From: a virus
Lineage: Duplodnaviria > Caudoviricetes
Reading direction: 5' to 3' (one strand)
Virus record (IMG/VR): IMGVR_UViG_3300010366_000001
Location: 625-64,624 of that record
Length of the DNA stretch: 64,000 nucleotides
The notes under the pieces were generated by a model. That model was not told the origin of the DNA and ran no database searches. It was given only the letters and a program-made list of their open reading frames with translations. Position numbers and translations under genes: made by a program. Shown one piece after another: positions 14 to 37,457 of this stretch. How positions within the stretch are numbered: position 1 is the first letter of the stretch; each line of letters begins with the position of its first letter.

Positions 14-526
14 ATGCTACCGTCATCACCCCCTGAAGAATGGCCCGACGAACCAACCTTCGGACCTGGACCCGAGATTCGCAGCTTCGCCCGCTTTGCT
101 GAGTTGACGCGCGAAAAGCGCGACCTCGAGGGACGCCTGGAAGTGATCAAGGAAGAACTCGAGGCGATCTCGATCACGCTCAAAGAGTACCTGCTCAGCA
201 AAGAGGACCTCGAGGGCGTCACCATCGGCGGATTCAACATCCACCTGCGCCGCGAACTGTGGGCGCGCAAGGCCGAGCTCGCAACCACCGAAGAGGTGTG
301 CCACGCGCTGCGCGCCAGCGGCATGGGCCAGTTCGTCAAAGAGGAATTCTCGACCAGTTCACTTTCCGCCCACGTGCGGCAACTTGAGCGTGAGCACGAA
401 GCCGAGATTTTGAATGGCGAGATCGAGCTTCGCGATCTGCTGCCCGAGCCGCTCGCCGCGGTCTTGAGCGTCGAGCCCACCTACAAAGTCATTGCCATGC
501 AGAAACAAACAAAAAGGAGAAAATGA
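14..526 (+). CDS. Replication-module hypothetical protein with N-terminal coiled coil
   Basis: 170-aa ORF after an aggag RBS; overlaps the start of the next gene by 4 nt; coiled-coil stretch LTREKRDLEGRLEVIKEELE. Confidence 0.6.
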   Translation: MLPSSPPEEWPDEPTFGPGPEIRSFARFAELTREKRDLEGRLEVIKEELEAISITLKEYLLSKEDLEGVTIGGFNIHLRRELWARKAELATTEEVCHALRASGMGQFVKEEFSTSSLSAHVRQLEREHEAEILNGEIELRDLLPEPLAAVLSVEPTYKVIAMQKQTKRRK

Positions 527-1299
527 TGCCAGAATCGAAAACCGGCCTGGTGCGCATGGAGGAGAGCGAATACCTCCTGCTGCAACCGGAAGCCCAGAAC
601 GAATTCCGCGAACTATTCCGAGCCAACATCGGAGAGGGCGGACAGATTAACCCACTCGATCTGCCGCGCGACAAGGTCGGCACGGGCGGCGCCATCGAGT
701 TCCGCAAACAGGCGGCCGACGGCACCGAGGTCGTACAGAAGCTCGACTGCATTGTCGTCTCGTGGCGGCCGGCGCGGTTGTATTGGAAGGACCCCAACCC
801 CAGCGGCAAGCGGCCCGATTGCTCGTCGAAGAACGGCTTCATCGGCATCGGCGACCCGGGCGGAAATTGCGAGACCTGCCCGTACGCACAATACGGCAGT
901 TCGCTCAAAGGCGGCGGGCAGGCCTGCAAGCAGATCCGCCAGATGCTGATCCTCTACCCGGAGGAGATCCTGCCCCACGTCGTCACCATCCCGCCCACCT
1001 CACTCAAGGCCTGCGGCCGCTACTTTCTGATGTTGCTCGGGCTGCGCCTGCCCTACTGGTCGGTGGTGACCCGGATCCAGATCGAGGCCGCGCAGAACGA
1101 GACAGGCGTGAAATTCGCCAAGATGGGCTTCTTTCTCGAGCGCCGGCTGAACCCGGAGGAGCGCGAGCTATTCGCACCGATCCAGAGGCAGATGGCCAAG
1201 CTGCTCGATCCCATGACGGTCGATGCGAACGACTACGATCACGGCACCGCCGCGGCCGAGCCGGCGGAGGCGAACTCACCGGACGACGTGCCGTTTTAA
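523..1299 (+). CDS. Putative single-stranded DNA-binding / annealing protein
   Basis: 258 aa; Cys motif (CSSKNG...CETCPY...CKQ) and acidic C-terminal tail ending DDVPF, as in SSBs; lies directly before the primase. Confidence 0.5.
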   Translation: MMPESKTGLVRMEESEYLLLQPEAQNEFRELFRANIGEGGQINPLDLPRDKVGTGGAIEFRKQAADGTEVVQKLDCIVVSWRPARLYWKDPNPSGKRPDCSSKNGFIGIGDPGGNCETCPYAQYGSSLKGGGQACKQIRQMLILYPEEILPHVVTIPPTSLKACGRYFLMLLGLRLPYWSVVTRIQIEAAQNETGVKFAKMGFFLERRLNPEERELFAPIQRQMAKLLDPMTVDANDYDHGTAAAEPAEANSPDDVPF

Positions 1300-1310
1300 C
1301 GAGGTAGGGA

Positions 1311-3257
1311 ATGCGGCTCACCCCGGACGATTACGCCGCTCTCGAGCGTTGCTATATCACCCCGCCGATCGCGCAGGCGGCGGGCCTGTTCCGCGTCCCG
1401 TCGATTGAGGGGCGCGACCTGGTGGGCCGCAAGGGCGGAGGAGACTACTCCGGCGTAGTCTTCCCGCTCACTTGGCCGGGCGAGCCGGCGATCGCGCTCT
1501 ACCGCCTCCGCCTCGACCACCCTCCAGTCGATCTATCGAACGGCAAGCCGCAGCACAAGTATTTAACCGCGGCCGGCGCGCGCAACCGGCTCTACATGCC
1601 CCTCGAGGACCCCGCCCTGCTCCAGGACGTCGAGGTGCCGATTGTGATGACCGAGGGCGAGAAAAAATACTTGGCCCTGCACCGGCTGGCCCACGAGCAG
1701 GGCGGCAATGGCACAGGCAAGCCGGCATTCATCCCCATGGCCCTGTTCGGCGTCTGGGGCTGGCGCGGCATCATCGGCTACACCTCGGACGCCCACGGCA
1801 ACCGCGTCGAGCAGAAGGGCCCCATTCCCGACCTCGACCGCGTCAAGTGGGAGGGGCGCCGGGTCTACCTCTGCTACGACGCCAACGCCGCCACCAACGA
1901 AATGGTGCGGGTCGCCCGGGGGCAGGCGGCGCGCGAACTGGAAAGCCGCGGCGCCATGGTCTGGGTCATCGACCTGCCGCAGGCGCCCGGAGTGAATGGG
2001 GTGGACGACTTTTTAGCGGCCGCCCCCAGCGGGCCGCAGGACTTCCTCAGCCTGATGCAGGCCGCCATCCGCTACCGCTGGCGCGACGAACTGGCCAGGA
2101 ACGAGAAGGGCAAGATTTTGCCGGGCATCAACAACGTCCTGCTGGCGCTGCGCCTCGCCCCCGCATGGCACGGCGTGCTGGGCTTCAACGAATTCGCCCT
2201 GGTCGTCGAAGCGCGCCGGCAGCCCCCCTGGGGCGGTCTCGTGGGGCGCTGGAGCGACACCGCAGACCTTCTCACCAGCGCCTGGCTCGAGCGGCAGGGG
2301 ATCGTTACGTCCGACCTGCTGGCTTCGAAGGCCGTGCAGACCGTGGCCCGCGACCACCCCTTCCATCCCGTGCGCGATTACCTGGACGGGCTGGAGTGGG
2401 ACGGCATCGAGCGCCTCGACGACTGGTTGACGCTGTACCTCGGGGTGAAGCCCGGCGCATACGTCCGCGCCGTAGGCAAGCGATGGTACATCAGCGGCGT
2501 AGCCCGCGCCCGCAAGCCCGGCTGCCAGGTGGATCACACCCTGATCCTCGAGGGACTGCAGGGCATCGGCAAATCGAGCGTATTCAAAATTATCGGCGGC
2601 GAATTCTACAGCGACGACATTGCGGAGCTCGGCACCAAAGACGCGTCGCTCTCCGCCGCCGGCGCCTGGATCATCGAGCTAGCCGAGCTCGACGCCATGG
2701 GGCGCGCGGATATCAGCAAGATCAAGGCCTTCTTATCCCGAAGCGAGGACCGCTTCCGCCCGCCCTACGGCCGACATCTGATCACCGCCCCGCGGCAGTG
2801 CATCTTCGGCGGGTCGGTGAACGTTGCCGCCTATCTGAAGGACGAGACCGGCGGGAGAAGGTTCTGGCCGGTCACCTGCGGCCGAATCAACCTCGAGGCC
2901 CTGCGCCGCGATCGCGACCAACTCTGGGCCGAGGCCGACGCGCGCTACAACCGAGGCGAGCCATGGTGGCTCGACACAGCGGAGCTCAATCGAGAGGCGG
3001 CCGCGGAGCAGGAGGCGCGCTACCAGACCGACCCGTGGGAGCCGGAAATCGACCGCTACCTGCTTTCCCGCACCGAAGTCACCACCAGCGACGTGCTCGA
3101 GAACGCCATCAAAAAAGACAGGGGCCAGTGGACCCGCGCCGACGAGATGCGCGTCGCCGCCATCCTGAGAAGGCTGGGCTGGGAGGCAGGCCGGCGCGGT
3201 TCTGGCGGCTCGCGGCGCCGCATCTACGAACTCAGAGAGGCGCCGGTAGGAGTGTAG
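1311..3257 (+). CDS. Primase-helicase: DUF3854-like TOPRIM domain plus VirE/VapE-type P-loop ATPase
   Basis: TOPRIM motifs VMTEGEKK, YLCYDAN, GVDDFL; Walker A LEGLQGIGKS; IIELAELD; RFRPPYGR; YLKDETGGRRFWPV. Confidence 0.9.
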   Translation: MRLTPDDYAALERCYITPPIAQAAGLFRVPSIEGRDLVGRKGGGDYSGVVFPLTWPGEPAIALYRLRLDHPPVDLSNGKPQHKYLTAAGARNRLYMPLEDPALLQDVEVPIVMTEGEKKYLALHRLAHEQGGNGTGKPAFIPMALFGVWGWRGIIGYTSDAHGNRVEQKGPIPDLDRVKWEGRRVYLCYDANAATNEMVRVARGQAARELESRGAMVWVIDLPQAPGVNGVDDFLAAAPSGPQDFLSLMQAAIRYRWRDELARNEKGKILPGINNVLLALRLAPAWHGVLGFNEFALVVEARRQPPWGGLVGRWSDTADLLTSAWLERQGIVTSDLLASKAVQTVARDHPFHPVRDYLDGLEWDGIERLDDWLTLYLGVKPGAYVRAVGKRWYISGVARARKPGCQVDHTLILEGLQGIGKSSVFKIIGGEFYSDDIAELGTKDASLSAAGAWIIELAELDAMGRADISKIKAFLSRSEDRFRPPYGRHLITAPRQCIFGGSVNVAAYLKDETGGRRFWPVTCGRINLEALRRDRDQLWAEADARYNRGEPWWLDTAELNREAAAEQEARYQTDPWEPEIDRYLLSRTEVTTSDVLENAIKKDRGQWTRADEMRVAAILRRLGWEAGRRGSGGSRRRIYELREAPVGV

Positions 3258-3259
3258 GG

Positions 3260-5122
3260 TTGCCTCGCCATTTCAACCAGGGGCAGCGGCGCGCGCTTTA
3301 TGACGCGGCCGGCGGAAGGTGCACGTCCTGCGGGGCCGAATTAGGTGAAGGATGGCACGCCGACCATGTGATTGCGCACGCAGCCGGCGGGCCAACGGAC
3401 GTTATCAACGGGCAGGCACTATGCCCGGAGTGTAATCAGCGAAAGGGAACATCCAACATGACTATACCGAATCCATACGAGTGGCAGGAGGGATTCCAGG
3501 AAAGCTGTATCAATAAATTCCTCCGCGGCCAGCGCGACTACATATGCGTCGTGACCCCCGGGGGCGGCAAAACGATCGGCGCCCTGAAGGTCGCGGTGAA
3601 ATTAAGAGACGCGCACATCATCTCGCACATTGTAATCGTAGCGCCGCAGTGTTCCGTAGTGAGCCAGTGGAGCGCCGAAGCGCACAAGCTGGGGCTCAAC
3701 ATCGAGCGTTTCGGCAGCCCCGAGCGCCGGCGCAAGTATGACGGGATTGCGGTCACCTACGGCTCGATCGCGAGCGGGGCCCAGAACTATCGCAGCTATT
3801 GCAATGAGCCGACGCTCGTGATCCTCGACGAGGTCCACCACGCCGATGAAAAACAGGCCTGGGGCGAGGCGCTGCGGGCGGCATTCGAGGCCCCGACCAC
3901 CTACCGGCTGATGCTTTCGGGCACGCCCTTCCGGACCAAGGGCATCATTCCTTTTGTCCCCTATGATCTGGAAGAGCTCCGGGAGGGCCGCTACCAGGCC
4001 GTCGCCGACTTCACCTACTCCCACGGCGAGGCCGTGAACGACGGAGCGTGCCGGCGGGTGGTGTTCCCCTCCATCGACGTCCCGATGGTCGAATGGACGA
4101 AGGGCGATGGCCATTTCGCGTTCTCCCTTTCCGACACCACGCTGCGCGATGAACTGGAGAGCGAGCGGAATTCGGTAGTGCTCGACGCCTCCTCAGAAGC
4201 CGTGCGGCTGGTGCTCGAGCAGGCCCACCGGAAGCTCACCGAATTACGCCGCGCGCAGCCGAACACCGGCGGCCTGGTGCTCGCCAAGCGGCAGGAGCAC
4301 GCCCTGCAACTGGCCGAGGTGCTCGAGTCGATTGCCGGCGTGAAGCCGGTGGTCGCAATCTCCGAAGACCCGGAGTCGGACGCCAACATCGAACGCTTCC
4401 GGAACTCCTCGGATCCATGGATCGTTTCGGTGCGCATGGTAAGCGAAGGCGTAGATATCAAGCGCCTGCAGGTCCTTGCCTACCTCACCAAAACCGACAC
4501 CCCCATGTTTTTCCGCCAGGCCGTCGGGCGCGTGGTGCGTACCATCAAGGGCGCGCGGCACCGCGACGCCTACGTGTTCATCCTCAACCGCGAACCGCTG
4601 ATCACGCTCGCCGCGCAACTCGAGGCCGAGCAGACCATCGAAATCCCGAAAGAGAAAAAGCCGCGGGAAGGCAGCGAAAAAGAGTGGGAGGAGGGGGACC
4701 CGCTGGTATACGTCTCCTGCGAGGCCGGAGTCGGATCCACCATTCTCACCGGCGGCGCCGATCCGCTTCCGGCGGACCTGATCGACAAGGGGGGCCGGCT
4801 GAAGGACCTGCTGAACCTGGACCTAACAGCCGAAGAGATGGCAGAGGCGCTGCGCGATTGCGAGACCGATGACCCGGAATTGCTCAAGCGGCCGGCCGAG
4901 CCGAAAGACCGGCGCATGGAGCGGAAAACGAGGCGCTCCAATAGCCTCGCCCATTCCGTCGGAATGACCCGCGGCTATGCCAAAGAAGAGGCCGCCAAGC
5001 TGATGCACAAAGAATGGGCCAGGATGCCCGGCAACCACTGGCAGGCCAATATGGACGAACCGGAGCTAGACAGGAAAATTCAATGGCTGATCCAAGAACG
5101 AGCCCGCGCGCAGGTCGCGTAA
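3260..5122 (+). CDS. HNH endonuclease fused to SF2 (DEAD/DEAH, ResIII-like) helicase
   Basis: TTG start at 3260 after aggag, in the frame of ORF 1472..5122; HNH CTSCG..WHADHVIAHAAGG..NGQALCPECNQRKG; helicase motifs TPGGGKT, DEVHH, LSGTPFR, MVSEGVDI, QAVGRVVR. Confidence 0.85.
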   Translation: MPRHFNQGQRRALYDAAGGRCTSCGAELGEGWHADHVIAHAAGGPTDVINGQALCPECNQRKGTSNMTIPNPYEWQEGFQESCINKFLRGQRDYICVVTPGGGKTIGALKVAVKLRDAHIISHIVIVAPQCSVVSQWSAEAHKLGLNIERFGSPERRRKYDGIAVTYGSIASGAQNYRSYCNEPTLVILDEVHHADEKQAWGEALRAAFEAPTTYRLMLSGTPFRTKGIIPFVPYDLEELREGRYQAVADFTYSHGEAVNDGACRRVVFPSIDVPMVEWTKGDGHFAFSLSDTTLRDELESERNSVVLDASSEAVRLVLEQAHRKLTELRRAQPNTGGLVLAKRQEHALQLAEVLESIAGVKPVVAISEDPESDANIERFRNSSDPWIVSVRMVSEGVDIKRLQVLAYLTKTDTPMFFRQAVGRVVRTIKGARHRDAYVFILNREPLITLAAQLEAEQTIEIPKEKKPREGSEKEWEEGDPLVYVSCEAGVGSTILTGGADPLPADLIDKGGRLKDLLNLDLTAEEMAEALRDCETDDPELLKRPAEPKDRRMERKTRRSNSLAHSVGMTRGYAKEEAAKLMHKEWARMPGNHWQANMDEPELDRKIQWLIQERARAQVA

Positions 5123-27051: not shown

Positions 27052-27216
27052 ATGAATGTGTTTTGGAAGGTGATCTGCGCGGCGCTCCTGCTTATGGCCG
27101 CGTCGTGGGCTGCCCACGAGTTTTTGACCTATTCGCAGCGGACGACGATCGCCCTGGTCGGCCTGGTTATCTGGGCCGTGACCGCGGTGAACGCGCTATC
27201 CGGCCAGCGATCGTAG
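27052..27216 (+). CDS. 54-aa two-TM membrane protein, leaderless
   Basis: TGt-TAAAAT(27039)-7 nt-ATG; two hydrophobic segments. Confidence 0.55.
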   Translation: MNVFWKVICAALLLMAASWAAHEFLTYSQRTTIALVGLVIWAVTAVNALSGQRS

Positions 27217-29400
27217 AATGGCTTCTCTGTCCGGCTGTTTCCGCAGCACCGGATGCATTCCGCCGCCGGCCTGAGCGATAGGCGGCTTCTGCTCCTCGTT
27301 CTCGTCCTTCTTCATCCCCGTAAGCTGCATGATGCGCGCCGCCATAGAGAGCCCCCGCGCGCTGCCGACCGGGACGCGTAAGCCCTCGGTGAACAGGCGC
27401 ACGCCGGCCGTAGAGCGAAAAAGCTTCGATAGCGCCGCGCTGCCCAGCGTGAGCTTCAGGCCGGTGAGCGGATTGGTGAACCACGCTCCAATGCCGCCGG
27501 CCGCCAGCGTGATGAGGCCGGTGCCGCTCGGGTTGACGTTCTTCGCCAACTCCTTCCAGGCGAGCATCAGCTTATCTAGCTCTTCGACATGGCCCGAGCC
27601 GGGAAAGAGCAGTTTCTTCGTTTCGTCGCCGAGTTTGTGCCATTCGCTGAAGCGCGCATCGGGCCCCTTTTTTGCGTCGAATAGCTCCTCGAGGTAGGCC
27701 CGGCCGATCTTCGCCATCTCGCTCAAATTCAACTGGCCGGCGACGCGGCGAGTGAGCCCAATGCTGGCGTCGCGGTCGCGCGTCAGCCGGTTGAAGGTGC
27801 CGACGCCTTCCCGCGCCTCGGGCGCCTTGCCGGCGATCCTCTCGAGCACCCGCTCAGTAACGTAGCTCGCGTTGGTCGCGGCGCGCGCGTCCTGCAGGTG
27901 GCCCAGCACCTGCGCGCCCTTCGATAGAGCCCCGGGCGTGGGCGGACCGGCGACGGCCGCATCGATCGCATCCTGCAGCTTGGGGATGACGAATTTCGCC
28001 AGGCCCTGGCCGCGTCCCCGGCCGGCCTTGCGCGCCAGCCCCTTGATGGCGCCCAGCGCGTCCTCTGCGGCCGATGCAGAGATGACGTCCCCGCCGTTCA
28101 TGAACGCTTCGACCGCCTGGATGCCCGGCGCGTATTGCGGCTGCGAGATATCGAGCCCGCCCTTGACCTTTTCGAAGATCGGCTTGAGCGTCTTTTTCAG
28201 CCCGCTCACATCCACCGGCAGGGCAATGTCTTCGAAGATCGGGATCTGGCGCAGGATGGGGGCTCCGGTCACGGGGTCCCAGCCGGTTACCGTGTCGTTG
28301 GTGCCGACCTGCACCTTTTTCAGGTTGGCCGGATCGGCTTCGTACTGGTGGAAAACATCGTAGTCCCGGCTGGCCGCCGCGCGCTGCGCCTTAACTCGGG
28401 ATTCGAGCTTTCCCGCAATGTCTGTGCCGGCGGTCTCGGCCGTAAGGCGCTGCCCTGGAGCGGCCCGCTCGGTGAGTTCCTGCGCCCGGGCCTCGAGGTT
28501 CTTTTTGGTCAGCGCGTCGGCCGCCTCTTCGACAAAGCCGCCTCCCGGCATGACCCCGCTGGTCTTTTGGGTGAACTTGAGAAACTTGTTGTCGGTGGCG
28601 ACCCCCACGTTGCCCGGCACGCGCGTTTCGGGCGAGCCCTCTTCCATCACATACTTCATCGCGTCGCGCAGTTCGGGCGTCGCGCGATTGAAGCCGGGAA
28701 TGCGCGCAGTTACGCTTTCCGGCATGAGCCCCAGGGCCGAGGGAGCGATGAGCCCGGTGGCCTGACCCATGGCGCGCGCTACGTCTGGATCGTGGCCCGG
28801 CTCAACGACATTGCCGTACTTATCGAAGACCGGCGCCGCGGGGCTCCCCGTCTCCGCGGCCTCGACCGCGGCCGGGCCGACCATCGGGAAGTTGCCGAGC
28901 GTCTGCCCGGCGGCCTCCATGGCGTCGTACCATTGGCCCGTGCCCGCTGCGCGCTGCCAGGCTTCCTTAGTCTTCTCTGCCTGCTTTTGGTGGGCCTGCA
29001 CTACCCCGTGCATCATGTCCACCGTGTCGGGCTCGAGTGTATGCTTGGCGCCGGCTGCGAACGCCATGAGGTCGCCGACGGCCTTGGCCATGTGGGGCAG
29101 CCCCTCGAGGGTCGTTTCCCAGAGGCCTTTGCCGTAGCGGCTCGCGGCGGATCCCTGCGGCTGAACGAAATCCGGCTGCTGGTTGGCGGTCGTGGCGGTA
29201 TTGTTCAGCCCCGCGGCCTGCTGCGCTTTCCATCCCTTGGCCGCCTGGTCGAACATGTCGCCGGCCGGCGCAGGAAGAGCGGGCGAGGTCTGCGCCGGGC
29301 CGGCGCTGGGTTGAATGGGCGCCACTGCACCATTCGGATGCTGTTTGCGCCACTCTTCCGCAGCCTGGTCAAACATGTCCTGGGGCATCAGAATATCCAT
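27196..29400 (-). CDS. Putative internal virion / DNA ejection protein
   Basis: 734 aa, Ala/Gly-rich helical, last of a coupled three-gene block; duplicated DMFDQAA motif. Confidence 0.6.
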   Translation of the reverse strand: MDILMPQDMFDQAAEEWRKQHPNGAVAPIQPSAGPAQTSPALPAPAGDMFDQAAKGWKAQQAAGLNNTATTANQQPDFVQPQGSAASRYGKGLWETTLEGLPHMAKAVGDLMAFAAGAKHTLEPDTVDMMHGVVQAHQKQAEKTKEAWQRAAGTGQWYDAMEAAGQTLGNFPMVGPAAVEAAETGSPAAPVFDKYGNVVEPGHDPDVARAMGQATGLIAPSALGLMPESVTARIPGFNRATPELRDAMKYVMEEGSPETRVPGNVGVATDNKFLKFTQKTSGVMPGGGFVEEAADALTKKNLEARAQELTERAAPGQRLTAETAGTDIAGKLESRVKAQRAAASRDYDVFHQYEADPANLKKVQVGTNDTVTGWDPVTGAPILRQIPIFEDIALPVDVSGLKKTLKPIFEKVKGGLDISQPQYAPGIQAVEAFMNGGDVISASAAEDALGAIKGLARKAGRGRGQGLAKFVIPKLQDAIDAAVAGPPTPGALSKGAQVLGHLQDARAATNASYVTERVLERIAGKAPEAREGVGTFNRLTRDRDASIGLTRRVAGQLNLSEMAKIGRAYLEELFDAKKGPDARFSEWHKLGDETKKLLFPGSGHVEELDKLMLAWKELAKNVNPSGTGLITLAAGGIGAWFTNPLTGLKLTLGSAALSKLFRSTAGVRLFTEGLRVPVGSARGLSMAARIMQLTGMKKDENEEQKPPIAQAGGGMHPVLRKQPDREAILRSLAG

Positions 29401-31898
29401 CCATGCTGCGAGGCCAGTCGGCGCGCCTCGTTGGGATCGCCCTCGGCCGCGTTGATAAACTGCCGTAGCGTGTTCTGGTCGAGCCGTTTGCCGCCGCCAT
29501 CGGGCAGCGGCCCGTAGAGCACCGTGCGGCGCGCGTCAGTCGCCTCGGGCGTGAACAGTTGCAGCTTGCCCCGATGATAGGTGCCCTCGTCGTATTGGTG
29601 CTGCAAGGTGATGCGCTGCGAGTCGAGCAGGTGCAGCGTGTTCACGATATTGCTGCGCAACTGCTGGTCGCTCATCTTGTGGTCGAAGTCCGCGGCCGCG
29701 GCCATGCGCTCCACCTGGCCTCCGCCACTCGGAATGTAGGCCTTGGAGACTTCTTCGGAAACCTTCTTGCCGATCATGTCGAATGTCGAAGCGAGGTCGG
29801 ATCCGGTCTGCAGGCCGAGCGAAACGGCGATCTTATTGAGCACCGGTAACTGGCCGTTGGCGAGTGCGCGCCGCGCCGTATCGAGCAGCGCCACATGCTC
29901 GAGCGACGTGGAGAGCGGGCCGGTCATCTGCGACTTCGCCCCCTGCGCGAAGCTATTCTCGGTGGCCTGCATGGTCTTATATTCCTGGTCCGCCCGTGCC
30001 CAACTGAAGCTCGGGTCGGCCTTCTGGGCGGCGCGCAGGATGCGCCGGCGCGTGTCCATGTCGCGGCCGAGGATCTCCTGGAACTGGGCCGGCACCAGGT
30101 CGTGGCTGACGACCTGTTTGGCGAGTCCGTCCACCTCTTCGTCGGTAAGCTGCGCGGCCTTGAGGCGCTTCTGCTCCTGAATCCGAAGCTGCTTCTGCTC
30201 CCACGTGGCCGGGTCGGTCTGCGCTTCGACCTGCAGTTCCGGATACTGGGCCAGTTGCTCGTAAATCGGCCGGCCGGGCTGGAGCTCGATGCCTTCGCGC
30301 TGCGCGATCGCCCGCGCCCGCGCCTCGCGATCGCTAGTGAGCGTCTTCTGGAAATTGGCGCGGGCCGTGACGACCGCCCGCTCGGCAGCCGCAAGTTCGG
30401 TCTGCTTGGCGCGCTGGTTGGCGCCAATCTCCTGCGCACCGAGAGTCGCTACCTTCTCGTCGTAGGCGTTCATCCGGTCCTGCAAGGTAGCGCCGGCCTT
30501 GAGGGCCTCGACGTAGTTGGCGCGCGCCGTCTGGCGCTGCTTCTCCATGGCCTGCATGGTGCTCATGCCGGCCTCGCCCAACTGCATCCCGAAATTGGGT
30601 GCATGCGAGGCCATCAGCGCGAACCCCATGTGCATCAGGATCTGCGAAATCGAGGGGTGCAGGTTCTCTTCGGCCTGCCGCTGCAATTGCGTGATGGCGT
30701 CCTGCAGGTGGCTGAAGTCCGGACGCTCGCCCATCAGGGTCTTGATGGCGGCCTTCGACCGCGCGATCTCATCGGTGGTCGGCGCGAGACCGGCTCTCAG
30801 CTTAGCCGCGTAGTCTTCCGCGGCCTGCACCTCAGGCGACACGTAAGCGCCCAGCCCCGAACGGGCGCCCGGCGGCTGCGCTGGAGGGGCGGCTTGCGCC
30901 TCCTCCTCGGCGGCGGCCGGCGCCGGCGGGCCGGTGTAGGGCAGTGGCCGCTGCGGTCCGAGGTCAGGCATACCCGGAATAGCCTGCTGGGGCATGCCAT
31001 TGGGCCCTACGGGCGTCAGGGGCATGTCTTCCGGCGTCGTCCTGAGGAGAGCCTGCTGCGAGGCCTGCTGGCCCGCTGTAGGCCTCGCAAACGACGAGCT
31101 AGGGGCCAGGGCGCGCTGCGACGATAGCTGCCCCAGGATCTTCTTAACATAAGCCTGCGTCTCAGGGTAGGGCGGCACGCCGCCGAACCGCTGGACGGCT
31201 CCCTCGCCGGCGTTATAAGCAGCCAGCGCCTTCTCGGTGTCGCCGCCGTACTTGTCGATCAGGTCGCGCAGGTGCCGCATCCCGCCATCGATGTTCTGCC
31301 GCGGGTCGCGGGGATTAACGCCTAGATCCCGAGCCGTTCCCGGCATCAGTTGCATGGGCCCGATGGCGCCCTTGGGAGAAATGGCGCCAGCGCGAAAGCC
31401 GCTCTCCGTCCTGGCTACGGCCCGGCCGAGGCGCGGATCCATGCCGTAGCGCGCGCTGGCCGCATCCAGCAGGCCGGGGATATCGGCGTCGGTGTCGTCC
31501 GGATCATCCGGATCGTGGAGAGGCTCGCGATAGCCTCCGCCCTCCGCCATGGCCCGCGGCGGCATTCCCATATTGCCCGGAGGCATGGCGCCCGGCATGG
31601 GCGATCCCGGGGCGCCGCCTGGCATCGCTTTGGCCGGCGGCGCGGCTCCGGCCGGCGGGGGCGGGCCGGTAGGCTGGGGTGGCATCAACTGCTGGAGCGT
31701 GCCCCGCAGCGTGTCCTGCATGACGCTGCTCGTCGGCGGTTTTGCGCCATCGCCGCCGGCGCGCAGCAGTTTGCGGCGCTGGAGTTCGGCGAGCACCAGG
31801 TAGGCCGGCGCGGCGCCGGTAGGCTGCTGCACCTCCTTGGCCAGCCACTGGTCGGGGTAGGTCTTCAGGTCGTTGGCGACCGTGATGAGGTCAGGCAT
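29388..31898 (-). CDS. Internal virion protein with soluble lytic transglycosylase domain
   Basis: SLT motifs AVARTESGF, GAIGPMQLMPGTA, DPRQNIDGG, ALAAYNAG, PETQAYV. Confidence 0.88.
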   Translation of the reverse strand: MPDLITVANDLKTYPDQWLAKEVQQPTGAAPAYLVLAELQRRKLLRAGGDGAKPPTSSVMQDTLRGTLQQLMPPQPTGPPPPAGAAPPAKAMPGGAPGSPMPGAMPPGNMGMPPRAMAEGGGYREPLHDPDDPDDTDADIPGLLDAASARYGMDPRLGRAVARTESGFRAGAISPKGAIGPMQLMPGTARDLGVNPRDPRQNIDGGMRHLRDLIDKYGGDTEKALAAYNAGEGAVQRFGGVPPYPETQAYVKKILGQLSSQRALAPSSSFARPTAGQQASQQALLRTTPEDMPLTPVGPNGMPQQAIPGMPDLGPQRPLPYTGPPAPAAAEEEAQAAPPAQPPGARSGLGAYVSPEVQAAEDYAAKLRAGLAPTTDEIARSKAAIKTLMGERPDFSHLQDAITQLQRQAEENLHPSISQILMHMGFALMASHAPNFGMQLGEAGMSTMQAMEKQRQTARANYVEALKAGATLQDRMNAYDEKVATLGAQEIGANQRAKQTELAAAERAVVTARANFQKTLTSDREARARAIAQREGIELQPGRPIYEQLAQYPELQVEAQTDPATWEQKQLRIQEQKRLKAAQLTDEEVDGLAKQVVSHDLVPAQFQEILGRDMDTRRRILRAAQKADPSFSWARADQEYKTMQATENSFAQGAKSQMTGPLSTSLEHVALLDTARRALANGQLPVLNKIAVSLGLQTGSDLASTFDMIGKKVSEEVSKAYIPSGGGQVERMAAAADFDHKMSDQQLRSNIVNTLHLLDSQRITLQHQYDEGTYHRGKLQLFTPEATDARRTVLYGPLPDGGGKRLDQNTLRQFINAAEGDPNEARRLASQHGWIF

Positions 31899-34800
31899 GC
31901 GGGCCTCCCTTCAGCGAGTTTAGAGTGGCCGCACGCCAACTGTCGATGAGGGGCCCGATCTGGCCGCCCTTCGCGCGAAGCAGAGGGTTAGTGTCCGGGT
32001 CTATTTGGGGGGCGACTGGTTTGACTTTAACGGGGCCCGCTTGCCAACCATACCCACCACCTTGATAGACCGGGCGGGCTGATCCGCGGGATCGGGCCAG
32101 AGCTCGCTCCTTAACTGATTCGCTAATCGGCCGTCGCCAGAGCCGATTTGCTCCAGCATTTTCAGTTCCCGCAGCTTCAGGTCCCGCAGACTCTCGTTGT
32201 AGTTGTTTGATGAGTTGTCCATAGTTTTCCTTGTTCGCGTTCAAGACGTCGTAGTGCTCCACCATCGCATGGCCGACGGCATCGTTCTGCTCCAACGTTT
32301 TGAGCGCCTTCTCCATGTCGGCCAGGGCGTTCACCTTGCCGTTGTGAATCAGGTCATTCAAAACCTGGGGATGGCTTATTCTAGCGACCATGGCTGGGTC
32401 GTGCACGTACTCCGGCATGTATATAAAACGCATACCAGCGTACTGCCCGGGCTTCATCCCTGGTCCGCCAAACAGCGTAAAGCCGCCGATGTTATCGGTC
32501 TGAATCTGGCTAATTACATTCCATGCGTCCTCACTCGAAAGAGGCTTCTTAAAATAGACGCTCAGACCTGGACGTGCGTATACGGCATTAGTACTGTCAT
32601 CGGGGATTGTCCTGGCAATGAAGGCATCGTCCTGTTTGTGCTTCTGCGCCGCCTTGATGACCTCCTCTGTGACCTTGTTGACGGAAGCCTCGCCGGTCTC
32701 CGGCAGCGTCACCTCGAAATTGGAGGCAAAGACCGGCTTGCCGGCGTTGTCGCCGCCGGGCGCCGACCACATGCCGAGCGCGTGGCTGTTGACGATCGAT
32801 TTGACGTTGGGGTCCGCGGCCGCCACCCGGTGCGCATCCTTCATCATGTCGATGGCATTTTGCGGTACGTCGGACATCTCAGGCTCGATGCCAGCCACGA
32901 TGCGGCCCAGGCCCGACTCCTTGGCGGTCGCCGCCATGTCGCCGCCCTCGCCTATTCTGCTGGTCAGGCCGCGCTGCGTCCACATGTCCTTCTCGCGAAA
33001 CCAGAGGAAGGCCTGTAGCTCATGCGGATCCATCCCCAGTTGCGCGGCGGCCTTGTCGAAGACCTTCTGGCCGAACATGAACTGACCGGTACTGCGAATG
33101 CCCTGCGCGTCGTTGATGACGCCCCCGGCTACGCCGCCCTCGGCCGGCTGCGGGATCGCCGGTGCATCGCCGTAGAGTTGGTGCCGAATGCGCTGAAGCA
33201 TGCGCGCGGCCCAAACATCGACCGTCGCCAGGTCGCTCGAGCCCGCCATGTTTCCACTGTAGTTTTGCGTCTTGGGCGATGTCGGCTTGCCGCGGAAACG
33301 GTTGATCAGCGCGTCCATCACCTTCATGGTGTTCGCATTGAAATTCTTGTCGCCGTAGCGCAAGGCCCGCGGACCGGTGTACTTGTTGGGCTGGCCGCCG
33401 GCCTCCCGATACGCCTCGTACTGCTTGAGAACGTCGTCGTAGTCGCCCTTGGCGTTCCGCTCCAGCCCTTCGACGGCCTGCTTGAAATTCTCTGTGACCG
33501 GCGTCCGCGCGCTCGTGACGCCGAGCATGTCGGCGAACAGGTCGCCGGCCGAGCCATACATCCTGCGCAGAATGGTCCGCATGCGCGTGTACCACTGCTT
33601 CTGCTCGTTGATGCGCATGGCCGTGCGCTCATCGAGAGTGCGCACATCGGGCTCTTTGACGGAAGCCTCCTGGGCCTGCTGCTGGATGCCTCGCACCTCC
33701 TGGACGATGGCGTCCGCCATGTTTTGCGAAACCTGCTCGCCGGCCGGCGTCAAGGTGTCTGTCGTCCAGAGCTTCTGGCCGCGCACCGGGTCGTCGAAGG
33801 CGTACGGGATCTCTTTGTATTTGATTTCGTACGACGCCGGCTTCGGCTTCCCGCCCTCTCTGGTGGGCGGCCGCTCAGGCGTGAACTTGATGCCCTTCAC
33901 CTCGAGCGGCTGAAACGGGAAATCGCCGCGGGTCGGGAACTGCGCTCGCTTGTCGCGGATATCCTGCTCTGCGGCCCGTTGCAGCCGGTTCATAGCCCTC
34001 TGATTCAGATCCGGAAGGTCACGCTGCAAGGCGTCCGAGATCATCTGCCGTTCTGGTGCGTAGACCCGCGAAAGGTTCGCTAGCTGGCGCTCGCCGCGGC
34101 GCCCTTCCTCGGCCGCTTGAAACACATCGATCGGTGCGCCGGCGGGTGCGGCCGCGGGCGGTTTCGGTCCGGCCGCCTGCTCGGCCCAGAACTGCGGCAA
34201 TGCCTCCGGCGCGACGCCGGCCGCCTGATCCGCCATAGCCTTCGCCTCTTCGAAGTTCTTGACGGTAGGCTGGCTGCCCGGGAAGTCCCTCGTCATCTGG
34301 CTCAACCACTGCGGATATTCGCCGATTCCCTGCATGATGTACTGGGCGCCCTTAACGGCCTTAGCGGCGCCCCAGGTAGCCATGTCGCCGAGGTTCTCGC
34401 CGCCCGGGATGCCACTGTGGAGTTGCGAGCCGCTGAAGGCCCCGCTCTCACGCATTCGCTCGGACGCCCTGGAGGCCGCCCGGTCCGGGTCGGTAAAAAT
34501 CTGGCCCAGCCCACCGGGCTTTGCCGGTGGCTCGGTAGGGACGTCCGCGAGACCGCCCGGCTCGCGAAGTATCGTGGTTGGTTCCGGGATGGGATGCAGG
34601 GCGCCGCTGACCGCGGCCGGCAAAAGCATCCCCAAGCCGTGGCCGGTGGCCTTGGCGTACTCACCTTTATCAACGTCCTGGGCCACCTGCTGCGCACCGG
34701 CGCCAAACATCGGCACCGCACCGGCGCCGTGGTAGAACGTACCCGGAATATCGCCGCGCCTCATGGCTTCCCCGGTCTGCCCGAGTTCACCCCATACGCG

Positions 34801-36966
34801 CGACGGCTCGTTGACCAGCCCCAGACCCAGGTTCTTCACGGTATCGAGCCCGCGCTGCATCTCGCCGGGGTCCGGCACGCGACCGCTCCAGGGGGTAGCA
34901 GCGACGATATCGCCAAGCTGCTTGAGCATGCTCGAGTCGGCGAAGGACCGCCAGAGGTCTTTCGCCGAACTCGCGAGCCCGCCTCCCTCTGCCATGCGAA
35001 CCGCTCCGCCGTGCGCATACCGCTCCGCCGTGGATCCGCCATTGCTGTACAGGCCGCCCTTCGCAAACGGCTTCCAGCCGAGGCTCCCCATGGTGCCGGC
35101 GGCGCCCATCAGCCCACCCATGAGTTGTCCGAAGATCGAGCCCTGCGGCGCCTGAATAGTCGTGTTCTGCGTGCCGTTGCTCGACGTCGTGTAGGGCAAC
35201 GGCATCATGTTCTGCAATTGCGCGAGGTAGGCCAGCGCCTGCATGGGCATCGTCAGATTTTGCATCTGATTCTGGTACGCCACGTCCGCATTCTGCTGCG
35301 CCATGCCCTGCTGTGACTGGGCCGCCTGGGCCATCGCCGCCAGGCCCTGCAGGCCGGCCATATAGTTGTTTAACTGCATGCTGCCGAGGCCCTGACCAAT
35401 CTGGTTCATTTGCCCCGTCATCTGCAGGTTGAGCCCCTGCTGCTGCTGCCGCGCCTGCTGCTGCTGGATCGCCTGCTGCAATCCAAGCTGCTGGCCCTGC
35501 ATGCCGAGATTCTGCGTCTGGAGCGCGCCCTGCAGGTTGCCCTGGTACTGCATCCCGAGCCCCTGCATCTGCGCGGCCTGATTCGCGAGCGCGCCCTGGA
35601 AGCCCATCTGCTGGGCCGCCAGCCCGGACTGCAGGCCCGCCTGCTGGTTGGCAAGCTGGGCCTGCATTCCGTAGCCGGCATTGGCCAGGCCGGCCTGGAG
35701 ACCAGACTGCTGGTTGGCGAGCGATGCCTGGAGAGCTTGGCCGGCCTGGAACTCTTGAGCCTGCTGGTTGGCGAGCGCCGCCTGCAGGCCCGTCTGCTGG
35801 TTGGCGAGTTGCGCCTGCATGCCGAGTTGCGCCCCGAGGCCCTGGGTTTGGAGCAGGGCCCCGAGGTTCTGCTGGCCAACCGTCAACCCCGCTTGCTGGT
35901 TGGCGAGGTTGGCCTGCAGTCCCGTCTGCGCGCCCAGCCCTTGGGTTTGCAAGAACGAGGAGAGGTTCTGCACGTTGGCCTGCTGCTGCGCCTGCTGGTT
36001 GGCGAGCGCGGCCTGTAAGCCGGTCCCGATGTTGAATTGCTGCGCCTGCTGGGACAACGCCTGCTGCTGGTTGAATTGCTGCTGGGCCTGCGTGTAGGCG
36101 TCCTGCAGTCCCTTGGCCTGGATGTTCGCCAGGTTCAACTGCAGATCGCGCGCGCCGGTGGCCTCGGTTACCGCCTGCCGCGAACCGCCGTAGGCGCCGG
36201 CCGCGACTGCCTGCGATCGCTGCGTCTGTAGCTGCTGGTTGTAGTCCTCGACCGCTTTCTGCTTCTGAACATCCACCACCTGCTGCGCGTAGGGCGTCAT
36301 GAACGACGACGCCGTGCCCGGGTCGGTCCAGGATTGCGTGGTGGCCTGCGCTTCGGGCGCCACGTTGGCGGCCGCCTGCATCTGAAAGTCTTTCAGGTTC
36401 GGCGCCGAGACCATCTGCGCCGGGCCCATCTGATACTGCTGGAGGTTCGGCCCCGAGACCTGCATCAACCCCGTGATGGGGTTCACCATTCCGGTGGGCG
36501 CCGAGACCCGCTCCGACTGCACTGCGGTCGGCGCCGACACTTGCATCGGATTGTATTGGTAGCTCGACGCGAGACCGGAGACCGACGGCATGCCGCCGGC
36601 GAAGGGATTGTCGAAGCTCAACGCCTGCGGCCCGAACTGCTGGTTGAAACTGATCGTGTTCGGATCGACCCCCATGGCGCCGACCGTGCCCATCAGATTG
36701 CGGAAGAATTCACCCAGCCCGCTCTGGTCGGGCGCGTTGCCCATGGCGCCGGCCTGCGACCAGTAGTTGTTCGTCAACTGCGTCGGATCGGCAACCGAGG
36801 CCTGCGGCCCCATGTTGTTGACAAGGCCTTGGTCGCCGGTGACCATCCCCTGCGCCGTGCCGAGGATCTGCCGCCACATGTCCATCAGACCGGAGTCCGG
36901 CGTGTAGGTGTTGGTCTGATTCGAAGTGGTGTTCTGCTGACCTGGTGTGCTAGAGAATAGGCCCAT
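31891..36966 (-). CDS. 1691-aa multidomain ejection protein: Gln-rich pilot region plus polyvalent-type enzymatic region
   Basis: AxxAGAYGGSRQAV pilot-type motif; 11-residue Q-rich repeats; later PKTQNY / ATVDVWAAR motifs. Confidence 0.75.
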   Translation of the reverse strand: MGLFSSTPGQQNTTSNQTNTYTPDSGLMDMWRQILGTAQGMVTGDQGLVNNMGPQASVADPTQLTNNYWSQAGAMGNAPDQSGLGEFFRNLMGTVGAMGVDPNTISFNQQFGPQALSFDNPFAGGMPSVSGLASSYQYNPMQVSAPTAVQSERVSAPTGMVNPITGLMQVSGPNLQQYQMGPAQMVSAPNLKDFQMQAAANVAPEAQATTQSWTDPGTASSFMTPYAQQVVDVQKQKAVEDYNQQLQTQRSQAVAAGAYGGSRQAVTEATGARDLQLNLANIQAKGLQDAYTQAQQQFNQQQALSQQAQQFNIGTGLQAALANQQAQQQANVQNLSSFLQTQGLGAQTGLQANLANQQAGLTVGQQNLGALLQTQGLGAQLGMQAQLANQQTGLQAALANQQAQEFQAGQALQASLANQQSGLQAGLANAGYGMQAQLANQQAGLQSGLAAQQMGFQGALANQAAQMQGLGMQYQGNLQGALQTQNLGMQGQQLGLQQAIQQQQARQQQQGLNLQMTGQMNQIGQGLGSMQLNNYMAGLQGLAAMAQAAQSQQGMAQQNADVAYQNQMQNLTMPMQALAYLAQLQNMMPLPYTTSSNGTQNTTIQAPQGSIFGQLMGGLMGAAGTMGSLGWKPFAKGGLYSNGGSTAERYAHGGAVRMAEGGGLASSAKDLWRSFADSSMLKQLGDIVAATPWSGRVPDPGEMQRGLDTVKNLGLGLVNEPSRVWGELGQTGEAMRRGDIPGTFYHGAGAVPMFGAGAQQVAQDVDKGEYAKATGHGLGMLLPAAVSGALHPIPEPTTILREPGGLADVPTEPPAKPGGLGQIFTDPDRAASRASERMRESGAFSGSQLHSGIPGGENLGDMATWGAAKAVKGAQYIMQGIGEYPQWLSQMTRDFPGSQPTVKNFEEAKAMADQAAGVAPEALPQFWAEQAAGPKPPAAAPAGAPIDVFQAAEEGRRGERQLANLSRVYAPERQMISDALQRDLPDLNQRAMNRLQRAAEQDIRDKRAQFPTRGDFPFQPLEVKGIKFTPERPPTREGGKPKPASYEIKYKEIPYAFDDPVRGQKLWTTDTLTPAGEQVSQNMADAIVQEVRGIQQQAQEASVKEPDVRTLDERTAMRINEQKQWYTRMRTILRRMYGSAGDLFADMLGVTSARTPVTENFKQAVEGLERNAKGDYDDVLKQYEAYREAGGQPNKYTGPRALRYGDKNFNANTMKVMDALINRFRGKPTSPKTQNYSGNMAGSSDLATVDVWAARMLQRIRHQLYGDAPAIPQPAEGGVAGGVINDAQGIRSTGQFMFGQKVFDKAAAQLGMDPHELQAFLWFREKDMWTQRGLTSRIGEGGDMAATAKESGLGRIVAGIEPEMSDVPQNAIDMMKDAHRVAAADPNVKSIVNSHALGMWSAPGGDNAGKPVFASNFEVTLPETGEASVNKVTEEVIKAAQKHKQDDAFIARTIPDDSTNAVYARPGLSVYFKKPLSSEDAWNVISQIQTDNIGGFTLFGGPGMKPGQYAGMRFIYMPEYVHDPAMVARISHPQVLNDLIHNGKVNALADMEKALKTLEQNDAVGHAMVEHYDVLNANKENYGQLIKQLQRESAGPEAAGTENAGANRLWRRPISESVKERALARSRGSARPVYQGGGYGWQAGPVKVKPVAPQIDPDTNPLLRAKGGQIGPLIDSWRAATLNSLKGGPHA

Positions 36967-36986: not shown

Positions 36987-37457
36987 TCAAGCAGTGGCGG
37001 AAAGTAAGTGACCGACATGAAGCGCCCCCGGATCGCTGCGCAAGGTAACGGGCATTGCCCACGGGGAGCCGAGGTCATGGCGCCAGCCTTTGCGCAGCGA
37101 GACCTCCAACTGTTTTGCGCCACGCGCGGTCGCGTAGCTCTCGATGACTTTGACGAAGTCGGCCGCCCACCTGCGAATAGAGCGCGCCGCGGCCATCTGC
37201 AGGACGACCGTATGCGGCTCGCGGAAATGCACCAGCATGATCGCGAGGCAAAAGTGGGGACCGCCGAACTCGCCCCGGTCGGGCGGCTCGGTGTCCCATA
37301 CGAGCCAGAGGTCAATCTGCCCCAGGAGCCAGACGCGCTTGAGGTCCTCGAGTTGCGTCATGTGATGACGACGGATCTGGTCCTGGCGCCATAGACGCCG
37401 TATCTCGCGCCAGTAAGGCTCGAGCCCGCCGGCGGGAGGGCGAAAGATCCGGATCAT
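36987..37457 (-). CDS. GNAT-like protein upstream of ejection genes
   Basis: IESYATARGAKQLEVSLRKGW pattern typical of podovirus tail-region acetyltransferase-like genes. Confidence 0.5.
   Translation of the reverse strand: MIRIFRPPAGGLEPYWREIRRLWRQDQIRRHHMTQLEDLKRVWLLGQIDLWLVWDTEPPDRGEFGGPHFCLAIMLVHFREPHTVVLQMAAARSIRRWAADFVKVIESYATARGAKQLEVSLRKGWRHDLGSPWAMPVTLRSDPGALHVGHLLSATA

Follow-up and report, generated by a model that had tools for sequence, protein, structure and literature searches.

Polyvalent proteins are giant multidomain proteins of phages and conjugative elements that are predicted to be injected together with DNA (Iyer et al., 2017; PMC5512222). The word "glycosylase" is never used in that founding survey, its single occurrence of "HhH" is unrelated, and it lists no helix-hairpin-helix (HhH)-GPD base-excision enzyme; in a literature search we found no report of a phage delivering such an enzyme with its DNA. 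The HhH-GPD fold is known from DNA glycosylases such as endonuclease III (Nth), OGG1, and the Ogg2 enzymes, and from QNG1 (DUF2419), which has invariant Lys and Asp residues, cuts free queuosine-5'-monophosphate, and carries insertions that block the DNA cleft (PMC9881137). Here, we analyzed a stretch of 64,000 nucleotides (the window; positions 625 to 64,624 of IMG/VR virus record IMGVR_UViG_3300010366_000001, Duplodnaviria, Caudoviricetes), which is nearly all of a 64.6-kb record with direct terminal repeats, and within it the gene for a 1691-residue protein, P0001. A preliminary description of this DNA, made from its letters alone, had proposed that an HhH-GPD DNA glycosylase-like domain is fused into an injected protein and is followed by a second domain. 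We find that the domain belongs to the DUF7178 family, that its predicted structure has the two-lobe HhH-GPD fold, and that the candidate catalytic residues Lys1232 and Asp1250 are invariant throughout the family.

Predicted fold and invariant residues of the DUF7178 domain

Every string quoted in the preliminary description lies in one minus-strand open reading frame, that of P0001, and the span it gave for the domain, 32980-33600, corresponds to residues 1122-1329. When the domain alone was searched, residues 1114-1258 matched PF23802 (DUF7178) with 37.2 bits against a cut-off of 27, and the same family scored 37.3 bits in a search of the whole phage genome. The sole match in PHROGs was phrog_3842, a family of unknown function. 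An AlphaFold2 model of residues 1090-1350, based on a 62-sequence alignment, was almost all-helical and had a mean predicted local-distance difference test score (pLDDT) of 93.3 and a predicted template-modeling score (pTM) of 0.87.

Searching this model by full alignment against 48,161 Protein Data Bank (PDB) representatives gave 21 top rows that were all of HhH-GPD fold, comprising 20 DNA glycosylases and QNG1. Z scores were 10.2 for Thermotoga maritima TM1821, 8.0 for OGG1, 7.7 for CacOgg, 7.1 for Escherichia coli Nth, and 6.6 for QNG1; MagIII, Mag1, EndoIII-3, AGOG, NTHL1, MutY, MIG, ROS1, and AlkA were also among these rows, and the first unrelated row had a Z score of 5.2 over just 66 residues. 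In a second fold comparison, DNA-bound Methanocaldococcus jannaschii Ogg (MjOgg) ranked highest, with a Z score of 11.1 (177 of 205 residues, root-mean-square deviation 3.8), followed by Sulfolobus solfataricus Ogg (SsOgg; 10.9) and TM1821 (10.2). All 35 rows above a Z score of 5 in this comparison were HhH-GPD enzymes, the next row scored 2.6, and the alignments with Ogg2 enzymes spanned 175-178 of ~207 residues. Because the strong matches all belong to one superfamily, cover nearly the whole chain, and are followed by a sharp fall in score, we find the HhH-GPD assignment convincing. The HhH-GPD-like domain of the preliminary description is thus borne out by the predicted structure, in which both lobes of the all-α fold are present.

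An HhH-like element occurs at the expected place in the model, where helix 121-131 and helix 142-152 are joined by a loop of ~10 residues (132-141). Lys1232 corresponds to position 143 of the model and stands at the start of helix 142-152, and Asp1250 corresponds to position 161 and caps helix 162-176. The four-Cys [4Fe-4S] loop of Nth and MutY is absent, and no iron-sulfur cluster is expected because the 233-residue domain has no cysteine at all. The fused form also has insertions of its own, which consist of ~35 residues at model positions 84-120 and a β-hairpin at 194-203.

Conservation was assessed in an alignment of 159 representatives, consisting of the query and the domain cut from 158 homologs. 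Lys1232 and Asp1250 were invariant in 159 of 159 sequences and also in seven of seven sequences of a set that included cultured-phage relatives, and the pair is kept even in short, distant stand-alone members; cultured-phage proteins that have it come from phages of Mycobacterium, Tunturiibacter (Acidobacteria), Synechococcus, and Celeribacter. About 25 positions in the 159-sequence alignment were invariant or nearly so. In the N-terminal part these include Trp1125-Tyr1126, Gly1138, Ser1152, Asn1160, Gly1174, and Pro1231-Lys1232, and in the C-terminal part Asn1239, Thr1248, Asp1250, Trp1252, Arg1255, Gln1318, Trp1322, Glu1325-Lys1326, and Trp1329. The equivalents of the catalytic Lys and Asp that had been pointed out in the preliminary description are therefore present and conserved among homologs family-wide, and its overall reading holds as far as the predicted fold and the key residues are concerned.

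As a comparison set, we took real HhH-GPD genes from five metagenome-assembled genomes (MAGs) and aligned five Nth proteins and 14 mixed HhH-GPD proteins. The spacing of 18 residues from Lys to Asp in the DUF7178 domain is the spacing found in the five Nth genes. In the sole local alignment that HHalign produced against these Nth sequences, which was not significant (P 0.38), Lys fell on Lys, the Asp of VDTH fell on Asp1250, and the Arg five residues past the Asp fell on Arg. In two marine podovirus relatives, S-CBP42 gp36 (L120:6980-7576) and P12053L gp02 (L121:745-1335), the invariant Asp begins a D-G-H-A rather than a D-V-W-A motif. By their motifs these forms appear intermediate, nearer than the D-V-W-A form to the canonical D-T-H or D-G-N that Nth and MutY have at this place, and they could help to bridge the families by profile methods.

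Spread of the family and the cassette around it

In an exhaustive phmmer search, 1.84 billion cluster representatives yielded DUF7178 relatives in 774 clusters at 50% identity (E up to 0.001). Among the 150 matches listed of these 774, nearly all were in proteins of 600-4200 residues (range 270-4200), with the domain at varying positions; length-limited protein searches yielded mainly fragments on short contigs. DUF7178 occurred on at least 488 viral contigs in an alignment-based scan (the same scan with a single-sequence query gave zero matches), at 21 loci in 185,579 species genomes, 20 of them in MAG records, and in none of 14 control cellular genomes. The family is essentially phage-only. 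Other domains in the homologs include LPD22, LPD38, Kinase-PolyVal, ART-PolyVal, InPase, RadC, ParB, 2H phosphoesterase, and SLT, and by this predicted content they clearly qualify as polyvalent proteins, that is, as putative injected multidomain effectors. DUF7178 itself is not among the named Pfam LPD families of the founding survey (PMC5512222), and our literature search found no paper that names DUF7178 or reports a domain of glycosylase fold in phage proteins of the polyvalent or ejected kind.

Stand-alone relatives came to light with a different query. A tblastn search of 50,697 GenBank phage records with the P0001 domain found nothing, and one with a distant stand-alone PF23802 member (P0179) matched 137 records, which include Mycobacterium (48), Streptomyces, Gordonia, and Rhodococcus phages, T7-like cyanophages, Siovirus roseophages, and a Tunturiibacter phage. 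GenBank labels for these proteins vary among "glycosylase", "DNA glycosylase", "hypothetical", "portal protein", and "glycosyltransferase". Mycobacterium phage Scout gp87 and Rhodococcus phage Shagrat gp113 are examples labeled "glycosylase", and so the glycosylase idea for DUF7178 already exists informally in some annotations. We also noted that two stand-alone members of ~200 residues, Tunturiibacter phage Tunturi_3 gp111 (L118:5968-6564) and Rhodococcus phage Madraxi gp106, are labeled "portal protein" and "glycosyltransferase", respectively; both labels look like annotation errors.

The minimal stand-alone members have 200-209 residues, with the conserved pair at Lys127 and Asp145 or at Lys122 and Asp140. 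In Scout the gene is third from the right genome end, in the T7-like Synechococcus phage S-CBP42 it is among small genes upstream of the RNA polymerase gene, and in Celeribacter phage P12053L it is second from the left end. In phages of these types, all three positions fall in early regions. Cluster A mycobacteriophages, in which stand-alone relatives are found, are temperate. Placement of the family suggests that DUF7178 is present either in injected-type proteins or where the first transcripts would be expected.

In P0001 and its homologs, the domain is flanked by two conserved segments. A profile of the 130 residues upstream of the domain, made from 148 homologs, matched residues 956-1112 of P0001 with an E value of 1.9e-22, which defines an N-extension. 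This segment holds a small region with Gly-Trp and Pro-Tyr-x-Phe motifs. On the other side, a profile of the downstream region detected a partner domain immediately C-terminal to the glycosylase fold in 152 of 158 homologs (median gap, eight residues), and five of the six homologs without it end within 150 residues of the glycosylase-like domain. The second domain that the preliminary description had placed at about 32200-32900 is thus real. Its invariant residues include Glu1418, Thr1497, and Pro1518-Glu1519, and its AlphaFold2 model (pLDDT 85) consists of two tandem ferredoxin-like units. Judged by sequence conservation, the conserved unit is the segment of ~650 residues from 956 to 1607, which appears to move as a unit among phage polyvalent proteins and which we call the cassette.

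Fold searches with the partner domain returned RND-pump porter subdomains (Z score 9.6), a phage S-adenosylmethionine (SAM) lyase (7.6), and Cas2 (~5.8), and a search of the ESM Atlas gave no usable match for it. These matches are of a generic ferredoxin-like kind, and we assigned no function to the partner domain from them. Prediction of the complex between the glycosylase-like and partner domains gave a median interaction score (ipSAE) of 0.68, compared to 0.00 for the best of three controls. This passes the mark set for such predictions, which 58 of 80 solved complexes and two of 110 mismatched pairs attain, a calibration that is only rough here because custom alignments were used. Of the three runs, one gave a score of 0.00. 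The runs agreed on at least 0% of contacts, and pLDDT ranged from 52 to 74 for the partner and from 36 to 55 for the second chain. In the predicted interface, the β-sheet of the partner rests against residues 1127-1144, which form the long helix in the glycosylase-like domain. Packing of one domain on the other thus has modest support from prediction. We see no small acidic gene nested behind the domain: the open reading frames in alternative frames at 32500-33150 are short, none of them is acidic, and all are rich in Arg, Gly, and Pro, in line with the high G+C content.

P0001 consists of a Gln-rich, repetitive N-terminal half followed by the conserved C-terminal cassette, which is its single recognizable domain content. 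Residues 1-720 (34800-36966, minus strand) are rich in Gln, Ala, Leu, and Asn and are repetitive. No relatives of the Gln-rich N-terminal 950 residues were found among the 159 DUF7178-bearing proteins, and the cassette therefore looks as if it had been grafted onto a lineage-specific carrier. The last eight bases at the 3' end of the P0001 gene are shared with the beginning of the SLT gene downstream. Both lie in the structural and packaging region of the phage, where genes for a large terminase subunit and a collagen-like tail fiber follow beyond the SLT gene and those for the portal protein and a large serine integrase are close by. As the neighboring gene encodes an SLT internal virion protein, P0001 probably enters the virion and leaves it together with the DNA; gene context is the basis for this proposal of virion delivery. 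At this level the injected-protein setting of the preliminary description finds support, both in the overlap with the SLT gene and in the polyvalent nature of the homologs. The soil phage that carries P0001 is probably temperate, as judged from the large serine integrase that it encodes. Coordinates of the features are collected in the table below. Two further genes flank the P0001/SLT pair, one for a 734-residue product (27196-29400, minus strand) and one for a 156-residue product (36987-37457, minus strand). Neither has a Pfam or PHROG match, and the products may be further ejection or virion proteins.

Features of the P0001 locus, in window coordinates
Feature	Position	Strand	Basis or remark
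P0001 gene, 1691 aa	31891..36966	minus	Open reading frame list and translation
N-extension of cassette, aa 956-1112	33631..34101	minus	Profile match
DUF7178 domain with predicted HhH-GPD glycosylase fold, aa 1113-1345 (233 aa)	32932..33630	minus	PF23802, AlphaFold2 model, homology boundaries
Lys1232 codon, candidate Schiff-base or ribose-positioning Lys	33271..33273	minus	Invariant; start of second HhH-like helix
Asp1250 codon, candidate catalytic Asp	33217..33219	minus	Invariant; 18 residues after Lys1232
Partner domain, two tandem ferredoxin-like α/β units, aa 1346-1607	32146..32931	minus	Alignment, AlphaFold2 model
SLT lytic transglycosylase protein, 836 aa, internal virion/ejection protein type	29388..31898	minus	PF01464, 1.3e-25; phrog_342, "internal virion protein with endolysin domain"

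Proposed role and alternatives

On balance, and with moderate confidence, we favor the explanation that DUF7178 is a divergent phage branch of the HhH-GPD superfamily and that the cassette is probably delivered by the virion and most likely acts on DNA during entry by breaking an N-glycosidic bond, with incoming phage DNA as the likelier target. In this explanation we infer virion delivery, catalysis, and the substrate. The cassette would be packaged in the virion and ejected with the DNA, and an N-glycosidic bond in DNA would be cut at the moment of entry, with Asp1250 acting as the catalytic carboxylate. Lys1232 would serve either to position the sugar or to form a Schiff base, as in the apurinic/apyrimidinic (AP)-lyase step of Nth, OGG1, and Ogg2. 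The domain is accordingly a predicted N-glycosylase and possibly also a lyase; QNG1 keeps the Lys without having lyase chemistry. A common lesion or an installed mark on the entering phage DNA would be a more likely target than bulk host DNA. Many pocket-type residues are strictly conserved in phages whose hosts differ widely, and this favors a single shared substrate over one specific to each host.

Several results weigh against this explanation. PF00730, the Pfam family for HhH-GPD, did not match the domain at E values up to 10 (nor anything else in the whole phage genome), sequence searches of the PDB by phmmer and by two profiles found no HhH-GPD chain and only low-complexity or tetratricopeptide-repeat noise, and HHalign comparisons with the Nth and mixed HhH-GPD sets were insignificant, with P values of 0.2-0.7 overall; under more permissive settings, the Lys/Asp register was lost with the mixed set. 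No sequence-level tie between the domain and known glycosylases was found in these searches. At the level of structure, Foldseek also placed Ogg2 enzymes at the top of its PDB matches, but only weakly (E 0.3-0.5), and Z scores of ~10-11 can be reached by chance for helical models according to the search tool's own note. The hairpin of the HhH-like element is longer than usual and lacks Gly-x-Gly, for which the family consensus has x-x-[AGS]-P-K. QNG1 keeps both the Lys and the Asp yet acts on a free nucleotide (PMC9881137). Finally, our literature search found no biochemical data for any DUF7178 member.

The extreme form of these objections is that a chance arrangement of helices resembles a superfamily to which the domain is unrelated, as the lack of any significant sequence or profile match and Z scores within the helical chance range would allow. 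We regard such a coincidence as highly improbable. Chance resemblance would not readily place every strong match in one superfamily, cover nearly the whole target chain, and then drop sharply to unrelated folds, nor would it put both invariant residues in canonical register and at canonical secondary-structure positions. If the fold is real, it could still have been kept for a non-catalytic purpose, serving the ejection apparatus as a structural part or as a module that binds DNA or holds DNA ends, given that HhH elements bind DNA without sequence preference and that the domain is found in virion-type proteins. The invariant Lys and Asp and ~20 other conserved polar or aromatic residues are better explained by an active site than by a surface, however, and the stand-alone forms are encoded among small non-structural genes and not in virion modules, which together make this alternative very unlikely.

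Granted catalysis, both the substrate and the target have to be considered. Cleavage of a free nucleotide or small molecule in the manner of QNG1, for instance to eliminate an immune signal or a modified nucleotide soon after infection begins, is the alternative that we take most seriously, although we think it rather unlikely. QNG1/DUF2419 structures are among the matches (Z scores 6.6 and 6.0) and have the same Lys and Asp together with a free-nucleotide substrate (PMC9881137), the fused form of DUF7178 has its own insertions at 84-120 and 194-203 and a partner that is predicted to pack tightly, and enzymes that target nucleotides abound in polyvalent proteins (PMC5512222), InPase being among the domains of the homologs here. 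By contrast, the best structural matches are the DNA-acting Ogg2 enzymes, which score 3-4 Z units above QNG1, and the minimal stand-alone forms of ~200 residues lack those insertions and are Ogg2-sized. DNA is thus the likelier substrate. As to whose DNA, a glycosylase or lyase that nicks the host chromosome on entry and shuts the cell down would have the same fold and the same Lys/Asp pair, and host-directed nucleases are often carried by polyvalent proteins (PMC5512222). This phage encodes a large serine integrase, however, and is probably temperate, so wrecking the host genome before the lysis-lysogeny choice would defeat lysogeny. The occurrence of stand-alone relatives in Cluster A mycobacteriophages, which are temperate, speaks in the same direction. 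With delivery preceding that decision, bulk host DNA is an improbable target, and we consider a weapon against the chromosome distinctly unlikely; damage to host DNA was the weaker of the two ideas in the preliminary description, the other being removal of defense marks from the phage's own genome.

For DUF7178 as a divergent glycosylase that acts on entering phage DNA, the timing is suggested by the family as a whole, whose large size, conserved putative active site, near restriction to phages, and injected-type or early-gene placement point to a job that is needed as DNA enters the cell. A bolder suggestion, which we offer as speculation and hold to be doubtful, is that the cassette is a first-minute counter-defense or DNA-cleaning enzyme, either delivered by the virion or made from the first transcripts, that excises a host-installed adduct or common lesion from the phage genome or cuts a nucleotide immune signal, with the partner domain serving in substrate recognition or end processing. 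If this were true, the cassette would represent a widespread and unrecognized step of phage infection. Function can be tested directly, because free-standing relatives are present in tractable cultured phages, namely Cluster A mycobacteriophages, a T7-like cyanophage, and roseophages. Beyond the fold itself, our analysis contributes the near-obligate three-part cassette with its predicted interface, the early-gene-type placement of the cultured relatives, and the argument from a temperate lifestyle against a host-DNA weapon.

Comparison with known systems

Homologs of the cassette share hallmark domains with polyvalent proteins, whereas P0001 itself consists of the cassette and a Gln-rich region. 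Stand-alone DUF7178/phrog_3842 proteins belong to the same family as the P0001 domain and have the WY, PK, D-x-W/H, and Q-A-x-x-W motifs in common with it; they differ in being free proteins of ~200 residues, whereas the P0001 form is enlarged and is embedded with two companion segments in a chain of 1691 residues.

Among cellular enzymes, QNG1 shares the fold and the Lys/Asp pair (Z scores 6.0-6.6) and is a weaker match than Ogg2. It is a cellular protein with a free-nucleotide substrate, and it has insertions that block the cleft as well as a C-terminal tail. The bifunctional enzymes Nth, OGG1, and AGOG have the same fold as the DUF7178 domain, with Z scores of 7.1-8.5. The likeness to Nth extends to the Lys-to-Asp spacing and to the Arg five residues past the Asp, as seen in the five real Nth genes, and it ends at the [4Fe-4S] cluster, the cysteines, and the PF00730 match, none of which the DUF7178 domain has.

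The closest structural relatives are the Ogg2 enzymes, which are small 8-oxoguanine DNA glycosylase/lyases, represented by MjOgg (PDB 3KNT and 3FHF), SsOgg (3FHG), and TM1821 (3N0U), with which the domain has a common fold over 175-178 residues at Z scores of 10.2-11.1. Sequence identity is only 7-11%, and there is no detectable sequence or profile similarity. The DUF7178 domain further differs from Ogg2 in its longer hairpin without Gly-x-Gly, the insertion of ~35 residues, the β-hairpin, the ferredoxin-like partner, and the restriction of its family to phages. The likeness therefore resides in fold, size, and the layout of Lys and Asp. Both Ogg2 and the DUF7178 domain are without an iron-sulfur cluster, and in both a Lys opens the second helix of the HhH element and an Asp follows 18 residues on. 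In MjOgg we presume these residues to be Lys129 and Asp147, numbers for which a literature search returned nothing useful. In size and layout, Ogg2 enzymes are about the same as the minimal DUF7178 members of ~200 residues.

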